A DNA stretch of 64,000 nucleotides. It comes from Gemmatimonadota bacterium. Lineage in GTDB: Bacteria; Gemmatimonadota; Gemmatimonadetes; Longimicrobiales; RSA9. The stretch's first letter is position 1; every line of letters starts with the position of its first letter. The DNA lies in NCBI GenBank assembly GCA_040905425.1, contig JBBDRO010000080.1, forward strand, positions 31,809 to 95,808. The letters are read 5' to 3'. Shown here in pieces: positions 36,001-54,000 of the stretch. A program made the position numbers.

Positions 36001-39000
36001 GGGCACGCGCGGCCATGGCGCCGAGGGCGTCCCGGGCGGCGCGCACGGCCACCTCGTCCATGGCGCGGCGCCCGAACGGCGCCGCGATCCCCACCAGCAC
36101 GGCCAGCAGGGCCAGCACCACGGTCAGCTCCAGCAGCGTGGTGCCGGTGCGCGGGGTTCGGACGGCGGGGTGGCTGAACATGCCGCCCATGATGCGGCGG
36201 GCGGCGGGGCGTCGGAATGGCGCGATGGGCCGACCCGCGCGCGGGCCGTGCGTGGGGACGTCGCTTACAGACTATTCCAGGCCGTACTCCCGGATCTTGT
36301 AGAGGAGCGCGCGCGAGGACAGCTCCAGCAGCTCGGCGGCGCGCGTCCGGTTGCCGCCCGTGCGCTCCAGCGCGGCGGCGATGAGGCGGCGCTCCAGGGC
36401 GGCCGCGTGCTTCTTGACAGAGAGTTCGTCATCGGGCAGGGCGGCCGTGTCGTGACCGGGCACCGGCGTGGCAATGTGGGGCGGCAGATCGGCCGGGCCC
36501 AGCTTCTCGGTGTCGGCCAGCACCATGCCGCGCTCGATGGTGTTCTCCAGCTCGCGCACGTTGCCGGGCCAGGCGTAGTCGAGCAAGAGGCGCATGGCCT
36601 CGGCCTCGATGCCACGCATGTTCAGGCGGAGCTTGCGATTGTACTGCTCCAGAAAATGCCGGGCCAGAACGGGGATCTCCTCGCGCCGCTGGCGCAGCGG
36701 GACCAGGTGGATGGGCACCACCGCAATGCGGTAGTAGAGATCCTGCCGGAAGTCCGCGCTGCGCATCTCCTCGTCCAGGTCGGCGTTGGTGGCGGAGAGG
36801 AGGCGCACGTCCACGTCGCGCGACTTGGTGTCCCCCAGGCGCCGCACCTCCCCCTCCTGCAGGACGCGCAGCAGCTTCACCTGGAGGGTGGCGGGCATCT
36901 CGCCGATCTCGTCCAGGAAGAGCGTGCCGCCGGAGGCCACCTCGAAGAGCCCCGGCTTGTCCCGATCCGCGCCGCTGAAGGCACCGCGCACGTAGCCGAA
37001 GAGCTCCGACTCCAGCAGGTTCTCGGGGATGGCGCCGCAGTTCACCGGCACGAAGGCGGCGTCGGCGCGATTGCTCTCGTTGTGGATGAGGCGCGCCACC
37101 AACTCCTTGCCCGTCCCGCTCTCGCCGGTGATGAGCACCGGGGAGGGATGGCGGGCCACCTTGCTGGCCACCTCGAGCGCCTTGGTCATGGCGGGGGAGC
37201 GCGCGATGATCTCGCGGTAGCGGCGCTCCACGGCCACCTCCTCGCGCAGGCGCGTGACCTCCTGACGCAGCGTCTCGCGCTCCTCGGCCTTCTTCAGCGC
37301 CAGCAGCAGCTGGTCGGGTGAGAACGGCTTGGCTATGTAGTCGTAGGCGCCCTTCTTCATGGCCTGGATGGCGGTGTCCATGCCGCCGTAGGCCGTCATC
37401 ACCATGACCAGCGCTTCCCCGCCCTCCTCGCGGTAGCGCGTGACGAACTCGAGCCCGTCCATGCGCGGCATGCGCACGTCACAGAGGATGATGTCCGGGC
37501 TGAGTTCCAGGGCGCGCGCCAACCCCTCCTGGCCGTCGTTGGCGGTGTGCGCCTGGTAGCCCTCCTCCGAGAGGATGAGGGAAACCGTCTGGCGGAGCCC
37601 CGGCTCGTCGTCGATGATCAGGATGCTGAGCACGTCAGCGCTCGCTTTCCGACGGCTGCGCGGGGACGGCGGCGGGGAAGACGAGCACGAACGCCGAGCC
37701 CTCACCCACCACGCTCTCCGCGCGGATCGTGCCGCCCATGTTCTCCACGATGCGGGCGCACACGGCCAGCCCCAGGCCGGTGCCCCTGCCCGGCTCCTTG
37801 GTGGTCACGAACGGCTCGAAGATCTGCTCCAGGAGTTCGGCTTCCATGCCCGGCCCGTTGTCCCGCACGATCACCTCCACCACCTGGCCCGTGTCGGCGC
37901 GTGGATCCTTCACCCGGCGCTGCACGGCCGCGGCCAGGCGCCGGCGATGAGAGTAGTCGATGCCCGGCGGGTCGTCCTTGCGGCGCGCGGGGCGATGCTG
38001 CGGCGCGTGGTAGGCCCGCGCGGCGGTCGTGATTTCCAGGTGCCGCTCGGCGGTCTCCTCCAGGGCGTCGGCCGCGTTCACGAAGAGGTTCACGAAGACC
38101 TGCTGCAGCTGATAGGGGTCGCCGGCCACGGGGGGCAGCGTGTGCGCGAAGTTACGCTCTACCTCGAGGCGTGCAAAGCGACCCTGCGTGCTCACCAGTT
38201 CCAGCGTATCCGCCAGCACCGCGTTCACGTCCAATCTCTGTTCGCGCGTCTCGCGCGTTTCGCGCGGGCGGGCGTAGTCCAGCAGGCCGTGCACGATGCG
38301 GTCGATGCGCCGGGCTTCCCGCTCGGCCGCGCTGAGCAGCTCCGCCTGGCGCCCATCGGCGTCCCGCCCCAGCAGGCCGATGTAGCCCAGGATGGCGCCC
38401 AGGGGGTTGCCCACCTCGTGGGCGATCCCCGCCGACAGGCGGCCCACGGAGGCCAGCTTCTCCGAGCGCACCATGGCGTCGCGCGCCTCGGTCAGCATGC
38501 GGTTGGTGTCGTCCAGCGAGCGGATGTTGGCGGCCAGCTCGCGCTGGTCGGAGAGCAGCCGCTCCGCCATGCGGTTCACGGCCGTGCCCAGGCGCTCCAT
38601 CTCCTCCGTCTCCCCGGGCGGCACGCGCCGCTCGTGCTCCCCCGCCGCGATGGCCTCCACCGCCCCGATCATGCCATCCAGCGGCTCCCACAGGCGGCGG
38701 CGCAGGAGGAGGCTGCCGAAGACCGCGAACACCAACACGTCCGCCGCGAGCAGCACGACCACGTAGAGCGTCCAGGCCTCGGGGCTGGCCAGGCGCGGCA
38801 GCATGAAGGTGATCCCGCCGGCCGCCACGAGCAGCGCGCCGGCAAAGACCAGCGCGAAGGCGGTGACCAGCTCCCGGCGCAGCGTCGGGAGCCGCTTCAC
38901 GGCGTCACTGGCAGGCAATGACTCCGGGGGACGTGGCGGGCGCACCGTCCGCCGGATCGGCGTCACCCGTGTAGACCCCGCAGTTGGCGTCGTCGGCGAG

Positions 39001-51000: not shown

Positions 51001-54000
51001 GGGTGGGCGCGCCGAAGAAGTGCGCGTTGTAGGCCGCCACGGCCAGCGCTGCAGGGAGGCCGCCCGCCGCGAACGCGGCCGCCCGGCGCAGGCGTGCCGA
51101 GCCGCCGCCGGGGCCGGTGAGGAGCCAGACGCCCAGCACGCCCGCCAGCGCCACGGCAAAGAGGGGGCGGACGGCGCCGGCGGCGCCCACGGCCAGACCC
51201 GCCGCGAGGGCGCCGCCCGGCCGGTCCCGACCGGCCGCCGCCCACACCGCCAGCGCGCCGAACGCCATGGCGGGGGTGTGGCTCATGTACGCGCCCGCGT
51301 GCGCGATCGCAAACGGCGAGAGCGCCAGGAGCAGGACGGCGGCGCGCACCATGGCCGGCCGCTCGGGCAGGAGGCGAGTGGCCGCGGCCGCCGTGGCCGC
51401 CACCGCCACGGCCAGCAGGAGCGGCCCCACCAGGAACGGGGCGCCCAGGCGGAGCCCCGCCGCCAGCAGCAGTGGGTGGCCAGGGGGGTACTGGGAGACC
51501 CAGCCGGCCGTGGTCGGGAGCGCCTGCTGGAGGTGCCATGCGGGCAGCAGCGGTCCCACGGGGCCGGCCAGCCGACCCTCCGCCAGGAAGCGAGCGTGGA
51601 GGAGCTGCGCCATGCCGTCGATGAGGTTCGGACCGCCGCGCAGGGCCAGCAAGGAAAAGGCCGAGGCGAGCACGCCCGCCAGCACTGCTGCGCCGGTCGT
51701 GAAGAGCCACGCAGGAGGCTCCAGCAGGAGGGCACGGCCGCGTTCCAGGGCCCCATCGAGGCGCTCGGGCGCGAGCAACCGCGCGGCCAGGAGCGCTGGA
51801 ATGGCCAGCAGGAGCGCGCCACTCCAGGCCAGACCCAGGTAGGCATCCGCCATGGCCACCGTTACCGCGCCGGCCTGCCCGGTGGCGTCCGTGGCCAGCA
51901 CCCGGAACACCGGCAGGCAGGCCAGCGCCGCCAGCGCGCCTCCCGTCAGGACGCGCCCCGTACGGGCGGGAGCGCCCCACCCCGCGCGGCTGGAGCGCGC
52001 TCCGGCGGCGGCACCGGATGCATGCACGGCCCTCACCCGGGCGCGGTCAGGATGACGGCCCCACCGGCGGCAGGGGCGGCCTGCGGTACTCCGGTGACCT
52101 GCCGGCCAGCACGTTGCTCCGGAAGATGTGCCAGAACGCGGCCACGCCATCCTTCCAGTTGATCTTCTTGCCCTCCACGTAGGTGCGCCCGTCGTAGCGG
52201 ATGGGCACCTCGTAGATACGCGCGCGCGACTGGGCCAGGCGGGCGGTCAGTTCGGGCTCGATGCCGAACCGGTCGGCGCTGAGCGGCAGGCTCTTCATCA
52301 GATCGGCCCGCACCATCTTGTAGCACGTCTCCATGTCGGTCAGGTTCAGATCCGTGAACATGTTGGACATGAGCGTGAGCACGCCGTTACCCACGCGGTG
52401 CCAGAAGTAGAGCACCCGGTGGGGCCCGCCCAGGAAGCGGCTGCCGAAGACCGCGTCGGCACGCCCCACGGCAATGGGTTGAATGAGGACGGTCAGATCC
52501 TGTGGATCGTACTCCAGGTCGGCGTCCTGGATGACGATCACGTCCCCGGTGGCCGCCTCGATGCCGCGCCGCACCGCGGCGCCCTTGCCCCGGTTCTCCG
52601 GCTGCAGGATGAGCACGTCCACCGTGCCCTCCCGCTCCAACCGCTCGAGCACGGCACGCGTGCCGTCCGAGGAGCCATCGTCCACGCACACCACCTCCAT
52701 GTTCAGCGCTACGCGGCGCAGGCGCTCGATGGCCACCGCTACCGTGGGTGCCTCGTTGTAGACCGGCATGACCACGCTCAAACGGAGCGCGGCCATGGCT
52801 GCGGCCGCCGTAGCCGCGTCCTCGCGGCGGTAGTCTACAGTCATCCGTTGCCGATCCCGTAGCGGTTCAGCTTGCGATAGAGCGTCGAGGGGTCGATCCC
52901 CAGGACCTCCGCGGCGCGGGCCTTGTTGCCCTCCTCCGCCTCGAGCACCCACAGGATGTAGGCCCGCTCGATGATTTCCAGCGTGGGGTTCGCCGGCGTG
53001 TTCTCCGTCACCAGCGGCGCGGCAGCCGGCTCGCGCACCCGACCCGGGAGCGCGTCCACGTCGATCACGTCACCGTCCGTGACGATCACAGCTCGTTCGA
53101 GCGCGTTCTCCAGCTCACGCACGTTGCCGGGCCAGTCGTACGCACGCAACAGCGCCATGGCCTCCGGCGTCACCCTCAGCCCCGCTCGGGCGTGGTGCTC
53201 GGCCAGGCGCCCCAGGAAGCGCTCCGCCAGGAGCTGCACATCCTCCTCCCGCTCCCGCAGCGGCGGCAGGTGCAGCGTGATCACGTTCAGCCGGTAGTAG
53301 AGGTCGCTGCGGAAGGTGCCGGCGCGGATCTCGTGGTCCAGGTCCCGGTTGGTGGCGGCAATGATGCGCACATCGATCTGCCGCACCTCGGTGGAACCCA
53401 CCGCCACGATCTCCCGCTCCTGGATGGCGCGCAGCAGCTTCACCTGGAGCTGCGGAGACATCTCCGCCACCTCGTCCAGGAAGAAGGTGCCGCCGCGGGC
53501 CGCTTCCAGCAGCCCCTGCTTGTCACGCACGGCGCCGGTGAAGCTGCCCTTCACGTGGCCGAACAGTTCGGATTCCAGGAGGTTCTCGGGCAGCGCGCCG
53601 CAGTTGATGGACACGTACGGCCCGTCCTCCCGCTCGGAGAGCCGGTGGATGTAGCGCGCCAGCACCTCCTTACCCGTGCCGCTCTCCCCCGTGATGAGCA
53701 CCGTGGAGTCGGTGGGTGCCACCATCTCCGCCAGCTGGAGGACGTCCACGAAGGTGCGGCTGGTGCCCGTGGGCCGACCGGCCGCCGCGGGGTCCCGGCG
53801 CCGGATCTCCTTCTTGAGCGCCCGGTTCTCCCGGGACAGGATCCGGGTTTCGGCCGCGCGACGCAGCAACGTGACCAGCTCGGCGTTGGAGAAAGGCTTC
53901 TGGAGGTAGTAATAAGCGCCCTCGTTGACCGCGTTCACCGCCGACTGCAGCGACGCCTGCGCCGTCATGAGGATGACCGGCGTCTCGGGATCCCGCTCCC

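Follow-up and report, generated by a model that had tools for sequence, protein, structure and literature searches.

TfpW has reportedly been in the literature since 2008, and because this enzyme already provides a case of pilin glycosylation by a GT-C protein with TPRs, the biology considered here is not new in kind. TfpW (AAM52060.1) is the proven pilin arabinosyltransferase of group IV Pseudomonas aeruginosa/paraeruginosa; it glycosylates pilin Ser/Thr residues, and its DDX motif is required (bioRxiv 10.1101/2020.04.19.049825). In Pseudomonas, phages specific for the pilus are blocked when pilin is glycosylated (bioRxiv 10.1101/150227). The animal TMTC1-4 proteins (CAZy GT105) are cadherin O-mannosyltransferases in which HKSY of the SHKSYRP motif has been modelled as a mannose contact, and full-length prokaryotic homologues have already been noted, without a function (PMC7801869). 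Cadherin beta-strands are the targets of the animal TMTCs, and mutations in human TMTCs cause deafness and brain malformation (PMC13123603). We found no text joining TMTCs to TfpW or to pilins in the literature searched, bar an unrelated chemistry paper; subscription journals were mostly outside the scope of that search, and the link may be in print.

We analysed a window of 64,000 nucleotides (the whole stretch, contig JBBDRO010000080.1, numbered from its first nucleotide) from the Longimicrobiales-like genome of an uncultured member of the Gemmatimonadota. The first-pass annotation had described two TMTC-like genes on the minus strand, here T1 and T2, in one run with a PMT_2 GT-C and a DPM1-like GT2 and followed by two type IV pilin genes. 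All of these genes are present, with Pfam matches for the GT-C and the GT2 and PF07963 matches for the pilins. They belong to a translationally coupled minus-strand operon that stops where the sigma-54 promoter-like site ahead of pilA1-pilA2 lies. It opens with genes for a PilS-like sensor kinase (54208..55905, start approximate; Pfam 6TM_PilS above cut-off, HisKA, HATPase) and a PilR-like sigma-54 activator (52841..54211; Response_reg, Sigma54_activat, HTH_8), whose start overlaps the pilS stop (ATGA). The DPM-like GT2 gene (52047..52844; PF00535) overlaps the pilR stop with its own start and is followed by two PMT_2-type GT-Cs, namely a fourth GT-C of ArnT/PMT_2-like type (49979..52027, probable GTG start at 52027) and a 550-aa PMT_2 GT-C (48334..49986; PF13231 above cut-off) with a DE motif in its first loop. 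Next come a SAM-dependent methyltransferase (47645..48337; Methyltransf_11), an ArnC/GtrB-like GT2 with C-terminal membrane helices (46680..47648), a Trm112-like domain joined to a SAM methyltransferase (45652..46683; PF03966 and Methyltransf_11) and an AsnB-like glutamine amidotransferase (43747..45642; Asn_synthase, GATase_7). The fourth GT-C, the ArnC-like synthase, both methyltransferases and the asnB-like gene are additions to the operon as first annotated. T1 (41967..43724, 585 aa) and T2 (39988..41970, 660 aa) close the operon, the T2 start overlapping the T1 stop (ATGA).

T2 lies upstream of pilA1 and ends 180 bp from it. A sigma-54 (-24/-12) promoter-like site 5′ of pilA1 (39880..39894, minus strand) fits 9 of 11 consensus positions, and at least 8 positions fit in 45 of 54 related loci vs 80 of 1080 shuffles; a sigma-70 promoter scan found none. 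Also on the minus strand, pilA1 (39395..39808, 137 aa; PF07963, TIGR02532 and a conserved family alignment) encodes the probable major type IVa pilin and proposed acceptor, and pilA2 (38905..39309, 134 aa) a second PilA-like pilin (PF07963; phmmer to pilA1, E 6e-26). The gap between them holds a GC-rich 14-bp hairpin (39336..39368, minus strand), seen in sequence and fold and missing from the terminator-scan list, that is probably a terminator or attenuator. A second sensor kinase/sigma-54 regulator pair (36272..38900, minus strand; Pfam and ORFs, gene starts approximate) follows, with minor pilins, pilM and pilN next.

T1 and T2 are the only two such genes detected in the genome and are old paralogues. 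Both carry the DD motif reported for the first loop (residues 49-50 in T1, 39-40 in T2), followed in T1 by WRP83, HPVHVE143, GRAE155, KE218, DY317 and ERTLY385 and in T2 by WRP75, HPVHVE135, GQAE147, KE191, Y279-x6-P286-x8-P295, DY292 and ERTLY358. The C-terminal TPRs ascribed to both proteins hold for T2 (Pfam TPR_19 above cut-off) and are weak in T1, where residues 444-564 have an NCBIfam match at E 2e-5 and no Pfam match. This short T1 tail, together with inactive GT-C-fold proteins such as PIG-U (PMC7801869, section 8), would suit a role for T1 and/or T2 as non-catalytic pilin chaperones or assembly factors using the TPR arm. We consider that very improbable, given that the catalytic motifs are all intact in T1 and T2, with DD, RP, KE and ER present in both and invariant across 58 family members.

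An AF2 model of T2 (pLDDT 89) places its N-terminal membrane domain in the GT-C fold. In VIA comparisons the model matched ALG12 (Z 19.2, rmsd 4.6, 326 aligned), AglB (19.1), STT3 (17.8), Pmt4 (17.5) and ArnT (16.6); none of the top 50 rows was a TMTC or TMEM260 chain. Foldseek with the whole model returned TPR-type chains only, among the matches listed, and the family membrane-domain profile had no match among PDB sequences. T1 is assigned the GT-C fold through its 42% identity to T2 over 502 columns, a single-sequence fold of T1 (pLDDT 49) being unusable. A predicted complex of T2 (14-620) with mature PilA1 scored 0.00 and was not used as evidence.

Comparison with the animal enzymes used the motifs as published in PMC7801869, Pfam DUF1736 and Atlas clusters, and supports a reading of T1 and T2 as TMTC-like GT-Cs. 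The proteins share the GT-C + TPR architecture and the series DD, RP, FAVHPxHxE, G[RQ]A[ED], KE, D-aromatic and ERxxY in equal order and with similar spacing. Of SHKSYRP, RP alone is kept (ILGLWRP in T1, ELGLWRP in T2), and the motif is absent from all 475 proteins fetched. DUF1736 (PF08409) has no match in T1 or T2; of 64 membrane domains from the family, 30 have sub-cut-off matches in the right place (residues ~240-305), the best with 21 of 27 bits, and a search across 61 phylum genomes gave 3 weak matches and zero above cut-off. Among Atlas clusters, a Chordata DUF1736 cluster appeared at 0.93.

TfpW, which clusters with P0447 (642/646 residues identical), is a second relative. Against the T2 family, hhalign aligned it collinearly over 400 columns (probability 97.9, E 6e-13), and a TfpW-family profile (101 proteins) run against all ORFs of the genome matched T1 (E 3e-32) and T2 (E 9e-29) only, with the PMT_2 GT-C at E 0.04 and no score for the fourth GT-C. 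BLAST aligned 500 columns of T1 with the representative of the TfpW cluster (23% identity, E 8e-8) and found no significant match between T2 alone and TfpW. TfpW DD42 aligns with T2 DD39, and the TfpW YX6PFX7P loop (284-300) maps onto T2 Y279-P295; the spacing is kept while the residues differ (Y..PA..P in T2, W..PR..P in T1), and Y-x6-P[FL]-x7-P is found in some Gemmatimonadota members. In a quick tree (48 rows, long branches) the TfpW family joins the Gemmatimonadota clade with SH-aLRT 99, the two forming separate starred clades (10 and 36 rows) with T1 and T2 outside that of TfpW. What is new here is the recognition, by sequence comparison, of TfpW as a homologue of the TMTC-like T1 and T2. 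Since TfpW is a full-length homologue, a pilin acceptor has experimental precedent inside the family, and since it is a proven pilin glycosyltransferase, support for that acceptor exceeds gene order. The novelty is smaller than the first-pass annotation implied, because TfpW is already a GT-C + TPR enzyme beside pilA that acts on pilin.

Association with pilins extends across relatives. The reported frequency of homologues (6 of 30 class genomes) is in line with our wider count, which has matches in 40 of 151 class genomes (full-length in 37, G000 included), and the recurrent pilin neighbour (6 of 7 loci) recurs here: of the 36 other class genomes, 30 have a pilin no more than 2.5 kb away, vs a background of 1.2% of random 12-kb stretches of this genome with a pilin motif. 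Pilin linkage was seen at 62/74 of the closest named loci, 35/76 loci of a cross-phylum sister subfamily and 65/76 mostly gammaproteobacterial loci, where the enzyme usually stands directly after pilA and is followed by a GT2; one gammaproteobacterial order has homologues in 123 of 401 genomes, weak matches included. In favour of the pilin reading, the gene after pilA in TMTC-negative lineages belongs to a different GT-C family (YfhO) at 9/10 fetched loci. Weighing against it, gene order inherited inside one phylum does not count as independent evidence, and the enzyme is dispensable, because a complete pil locus persists in many relatives that lack it (pilR abuts pilA in 7/40 and the DPM-like gene abuts pilA in 11/40 fetched regions). 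Also against it, pilin Ser/Thr content is in only slight excess where the enzyme is present (0.244, n=32, vs 0.214, n=20, kin not being independent and five rows left out, of which G035 and G127 appear frameshifted and G079, G137 and G023 appear to be minor pilins); PilA1 of this genome is low, at 0.18, and no Ser/Thr alignment column sets the enzyme-bearing genomes apart.

The proposal that pilins are the substrates of bacterial TMTC homologues is likely for T1 and T2, given TfpW homology and gene order, and finds no support as a rule for the whole family, a pilin being nearby at only 2 of 48 loci of distant homologues (sampled mostly from Planctomycetota, Ignavibacteria and other phyla) and 6 of 44 enzyme clusters in the class lying away from pilins. 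These loci favour the view that T1 and T2 have a general role as periplasmic protein O-glycosyltransferases with several envelope proteins as targets (minor pilins, adhesins, Ig-like domains), pilin being one substrate of many or a mere neighbour. So do five class genomes with extra off-pilin copies alongside a pilin-linked cluster, G099, where the enzyme adjoins the DPM-like gene and 15 kb contain no pilin, the near-core DPM-like gene and the cadherin beta-strand targets of the animal enzymes. Against this, the only two copies in this genome both stand at pilA and TfpW, the homologue with a known substrate, acts on pilin, and we judge a general role unlikely.

The accessory genes bear on the donor sugar. 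The DPM-like GT2 has P. furiosus DPMS as its best PDB match (E 1e-17) and AglJ as its best NCBIfam match (117 bits, cut-off 325), and passes no family cut-off. It resembles DPMS (5MLZ), AglJ and ArnC in its GT2 catalytic domain and DAD motif; it differs from DPMS in reading DADLEY for DADLQH, and the match is limited to the catalytic domain. It is a probable polyprenol-phosphate hexose synthase. A DPM-like gene does occur near the enzyme, far more often than the 2 of 7 loci first reported (27 of 36 fetched regions); a dedicated partnership with T1 and T2 is weakened by orthologues in 127 of 151 class genomes. The ArnC-like GT2, a second lipid-sugar synthase, matches ArnC structures at E 1e-53 and NF007986 at 187 bits, under cut-off. 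GtrA flippase was not found in the 96.7% complete assembly, which counts against pilin glycosylation by this operon. Two Wzy_C genes, possible alternative pilin transferases, lie elsewhere in the genome. No ManC domain was found in this assembly, which we rejected as an argument against mannose: the domain occurs in 40/40 family relatives, so GDP-mannose is probably available and an assembly gap is likely. As the first sugar mannose is possible but doubtful, because T1 and T2 lack SHKS, arabinose is the sugar transferred by TfpW, the DPM-like GT2 falls below cut-offs and the operon holds a second, ArnC-like synthase; another hexose or an amino sugar is somewhat favoured. D-arabinofuranose is unlikely, the arabinose-route enzymes UbiA/DPPR synthase, DprE1 and DprE2 (the last query a 165-aa fragment) having no match at E 1e-5 with the L344 queries in this genome.

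The same accessory genes raise the question of whether the target of the operon is an envelope component other than protein, a polymer or lipid such as LPS, lipid A or exopolysaccharide, modified as by ArnT or GtrII, its pil location reflecting co-regulation. The ArnC-like GT2, the two ArnT/PMT_2-like GT-Cs (the fourth without a Pfam match of its own, with nearest Atlas clusters PMT_2/ArnT-like at 0.99 and homologues matching PMT_2) and the AsnB-like amidotransferase (TIGR01536 above cut-off, EPS-type TIGR03108 below) resemble lipid and polysaccharide modules, and the T2 fold matches ALG12 and ArnT in addition to protein transferases. The accessory genes may well act on such a polymer or lipid. 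For T1 and T2, however, the TPR tail, TfpW homology and a fixed pilA-side place in several phyla point to a protein acceptor, and the smallest form of the locus among relatives consists of pilR, a DPM-like gene, one TMTC-like gene and pilA; this explanation appears quite improbable for the operon.

Together, our results suggest that the operon is likely a pilin O-glycosylation system; as relatives of TMTCs and TfpW beside pilus-subunit genes, T1 and T2 most likely glycosylate the pilus. Beyond the fold, motifs, TfpW homology and synteny, which the analysis established, the mechanism is modelled on TfpW and on the chemistry of GT-Cs. In it a cytoplasmic GT2, the DPM-like or the ArnC-like enzyme or both, would load a sugar onto undecaprenyl phosphate, the lipid-sugar would be flipped into the periplasm, and T2 and/or T1, with DD site and TPR arm periplasmic, would bind PilA1/PilA2 anchored in the membrane and hand the sugar on to pilin Ser/Thr. 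The paralogues probably differ in the sites or pilins that they act on, or add sugars one after another; more weakly, extension and capping of the glycan probably fall to the two PMT_2-type GT-Cs, ArnC-like synthase, amidotransferase and methyltransferases. The likely purpose would be to mask the pilus from phage and stabilise pilin, as for TfpW. A bolder version, rather unlikely as a whole, would unite TfpW, the Gemmatimonadota enzymes and animal TMTCs in one family whose pilin O-glycosylation is widespread and unrecognised, with the DPM-like synthase here supplying polyprenol-phosphate mannose, T1 and T2 O-mannosylating pilin beta-strand Ser/Thr at paralogue-specific sites (like TMTC2/TMTC3 on strands of cadherin) and glycan extension left to the additional GT-Cs.

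If TfpW and T1/T2 form the bacterial arm of the family, they would offer a reconstitutable system with a small acceptor for DD-motif catalysis and TPR-based substrate choice. A further prediction is that the pili of many bacteria are coated by enzymes of a family annotated merely as "TPR protein". Phage host range in soils and sediments would be concerned, given the blocking of such phages in Pseudomonas.

With type IVa pilus loci that have PilS/PilR and a second PilS2/PilR2 pair, a Myxococcus-type order, the locus shares the succession pilS-pilR ... pilA ... second kinase/regulator, minor pilins, pilM and pilN, but here the proposed glycosylation operon separates pilR from the pilA promoter. 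Unlike animal TMTCs, T1 and T2 lack SHKS in motif 2, have DY for DW and a short TPR tail, and belong to the bacterial periplasm. With TfpW they share a membrane domain homologous throughout, the loop-1 DD, the spacing of the Y-x6-P-x8-P loop, a C-terminal TPR and a pilA neighbour; they differ as a separate subfamily at ~23% identity, in lying upstream of the pilA promoter whereas tfpW is downstream of it and co-transcribed with pilA, and in forming a pair of paralogues accompanied by two more GT-Cs and neighbouring GT2-type synthases.

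T1 and T2, tandem genes on the minus strand of the window (41967-43724, 585 aa, and 39988-41970, 660 aa), share 42% identity and are the sole two such genes found in the genome. Both are TMTC-like, a likeness drawn through published motifs, a predicted fold and family profiles. The TMTC motifs described in PMC7801869 recur in the same order in both proteins (DD, RP, HPVHVE, G[RQ]AE, KE, DY where TMTCs have DW, and ERTLY), and a T2 structure model (pLDDT 89) matches GT-C enzymes, including ALG12 (Z 19.2), AglB (19.1), STT3 (17.8), Pmt4 (17.5) and ArnT (16.6). The SHKS portion of the TMTC motif, modelled in PMC7801869 as a mannose contact, is missing from T1 and T2, and neither has a Pfam match to DUF1736. 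Matches to DUF1736 under the cut-off do occur at the expected position in 30/64 family membrane domains (2 from the window and 62 that we chose among 149 from related loci), and in Atlas a Chordata cluster with DUF1736 is listed at 0.93. Full-length prokaryotic TMTC homologues were already remarked on, as uncharacterised proteins, in PMC7801869. In a quick tree T1 and T2 each belong to an orthologue clade of their own, both well supported.

The genes from pilS to T2 very likely form a single operon, because their joints overlap or leave about 20 bp at most: ATGA overlaps join 6/10 pairs, an 8-bp overlap joins one and the rest are separated by such short gaps. On the minus strand the order is pilS, pilR, a DPM-like GT2, a GT-C that matches no Pfam family, a PMT_2 GT-C, a methyltransferase, an ArnC-like GT2, a Trm112-fused methyltransferase, an asnB-like amidotransferase, T1 and T2. 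Downstream on the same strand pilA1 comes first, separated by a strong hairpin from pilA2; beyond them lie another kinase/regulator pair, the minor pilins, pilM and pilN. A sigma-54 site is predicted between T2 and pilA1; such predicted sites, scoring at least 8/11, occur in 45/54 related loci versus 80/1080 shuffles. The minor-pilin-like genes form two sets (window 33359-36271 and 30193-33189) ahead of pilM and pilN (region 27770-36271). The nearest named homologues of the window come from Longimicrobiales and other Gemmatimonadota. Also in the window is a 1086-aa ORF (55969-59229, plus strand) that, judged by eye only, resembles a peptidase domain joined to propeller repeats and a barrel of the Omp85 type.

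Among 151 evenly drawn genomes of the class, 40 have a TMTC-like match, full length in 37. This count and the other genome tallies, such as those for the DPM-like gene and ManC, take in some unpublished genomes (G018, G022, G029, G142, G586, G587 and G589), whose DNA was not fetched and on which none of the claims depends by itself. The 36 further enzyme-bearing genomes hold 44 clusters, all of which we fetched; in 30/36 genomes (32 clusters) a full pilin lies no more than 2.5 kb from the membrane domain. In the remaining six the pilin is severed by a contig end (two genomes) or the contig edge is reached (three), leaving one true exception, G099; clusters apart from any pilin number 6/44, in six genomes (L421, L436, L440, L442, L446 and L452). 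A DPM-like orthologue lies within the fetched region in 27/36 genomes. Of the 74 nearest named loci, some of them perhaps also in the class sample, 62 have a pilin within 2.5 kb, and 8 of the 12 others end within about 1 kb. The background pilin rate is 1.2%. For a sister subfamily homologous to T2 (E 6e-43), sampled as 76 loci (80/124 with flanks, minus 4 duplicates), we found a pilin within 6 kb in 35/76; in a further set of 76 loci, mostly gammaproteobacterial, a pilin was recorded in 65/76, the enzyme usually occupying the slot of TfpW, the proven Pseudomonas pilin arabinosyltransferase, with a GT2 next. Pilin linkage is not general across the family, since only 2/48 distant loci of other phyla have a pilin. 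Many Gammaproteobacteria carry a cassette of pilA, a TMTC-like gene and a GT2 (L229-L349), often within G+C-poor stretches (0.33-0.45 in several) that may represent an exchangeable island. Separately, weak homologues at four loci (L353, L358, L361 and L367; E ~1e-15 or worse) have a C-terminal part unlike a TPR array and appear to form a further GT-C subfamily.

In 40 enzyme-free regions from 39 genomes, pilR adjoins pilA in 7/40 and the DPM-like gene adjoins pilA in 11/40. Genome G009 retains only a short N-terminal TMTC-like remnant between the DPM-like gene and pilA (L483:12158-12373); among its close relatives the gene is either complete or missing, so the loss may be recent. No TMTC-like match was found in families f7 and f9 of the class (0/35 and 0/4 genomes). 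There, a YfhO-family membrane protein of 820-930 aa follows pilA in 9/10 fetched loci (L475, L477, L479, L481, L482 and L497-L500, from G080, G116, G112, G088, G076, G020, G028, G084 and G046), above the Pfam cut-off in 8, and these loci often carry additional PMT_2 GT-Cs. YfhO is proposed as a GT-C in PMC5836110, and the protein after pilA is a candidate non-orthologous pilin glycosyltransferase. Occupation of the same slot by a second GT-C family fits the idea that this slot serves pilin glycosylation. In two enzyme-free genomes the space between pilR and pilA holds, in reverse orientation to them, a gene for a membrane protein of about 1040 aa with a spermidine-synthase-like domain (L466:12906-16013 and L469:1467-4589).

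The DPM-like gene is not dedicated to T1/T2, because it occurs in 127/151 class genomes. Its top PDB match is DPMS (E 1e-17) and its top NCBIfam match, below cut-off, is AglJ; the second GT2 of the operon is ArnC-like. A search of the genome for an arabinose route found none. The ManC beta-helix domain was not found in the whole assembly, though present in 40/40 family relatives, probably reflecting an assembly gap. Mannose is a possible but unproven sugar of T1/T2. The genome also holds two Wzy_C genes, on contigs C15 and C24.

In the proposed mechanism, a lipid-phosphate sugar would be synthesised in the cytoplasm and then flipped (no GtrA was found in the genome, which holds contig C80 and is 4.1 Mb and 96.7% complete), and T2 and/or T1 would hand it to pilin Ser/Thr in the periplasm. 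By analogy, the TPR arm may choose the acceptor: for TMEM260 the TPR is reported to suffice for acceptor binding (10.64898/2026.03.17.711096), and TMTC paralogues are described as acting on different cadherin strands (PMC13123603). The operon's accessory genes, which differ among close relatives, probably serve to lengthen or cap this glycan, or else to modify another one in the envelope. The role described for Pseudomonas pilin glycosylation is phage protection (10.1101/150227; PMC11841053).

The T1/T2 system is homologous to TfpW and probably acts in the same way. TfpW is described as a 646-aa GT-C with 11 predicted membrane helices, a DDX motif and a TPR tail, whose gene directly follows pilA and whose product adds D-arabinofuranose to pilin Ser/Thr (10.1101/2020.04.19.049825). 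A broad membrane-domain profile (A3) found homologues in 123/401 genomes of one gammaproteobacterial order, and one locus (L344:3634-10000, genome G461) has the order pilA, enzyme, UbiA, LPG-synthase-like gene, FAD oxidase and SDR, the arrangement given for TfpW loci in that preprint. Starting from L344 we retrieved TfpW (AAM52060.1) and two homologues given in the preprint, WP_139198627.1 and WP_090729738.1; L369, a TfpW-type locus, is the Pseudomonas indica locus the preprint names. Profile alignment of the T2 family with TfpW covers 400 columns (probability 97.9, E 6e-13), and T1 matches TfpW at 23% identity (E 8e-8); T2 alone gave no significant BLAST match to TfpW. Searched against the genome, a 101-sequence TfpW-family profile matched T1 (E 3e-32), T2 (E 9e-29) and nothing else. 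The TfpW 'proline-rich' motif maps to T2 Y279-P295, and the equivalent loop scores as DUF1736 in relatives. A quick tree, with long branches and no outgroup, offers a hint that the TfpW family groups with the Gemmatimonadota clade, away from other sampled subfamilies. In our literature searches no paper turned up that connects TMTCs with TfpW or with pilins. T1 and T2 fall outside the TfpW clade, and TfpW's donor route was not found in the genome; they are TMTC-like but lack two marks of the animal TMTCs.
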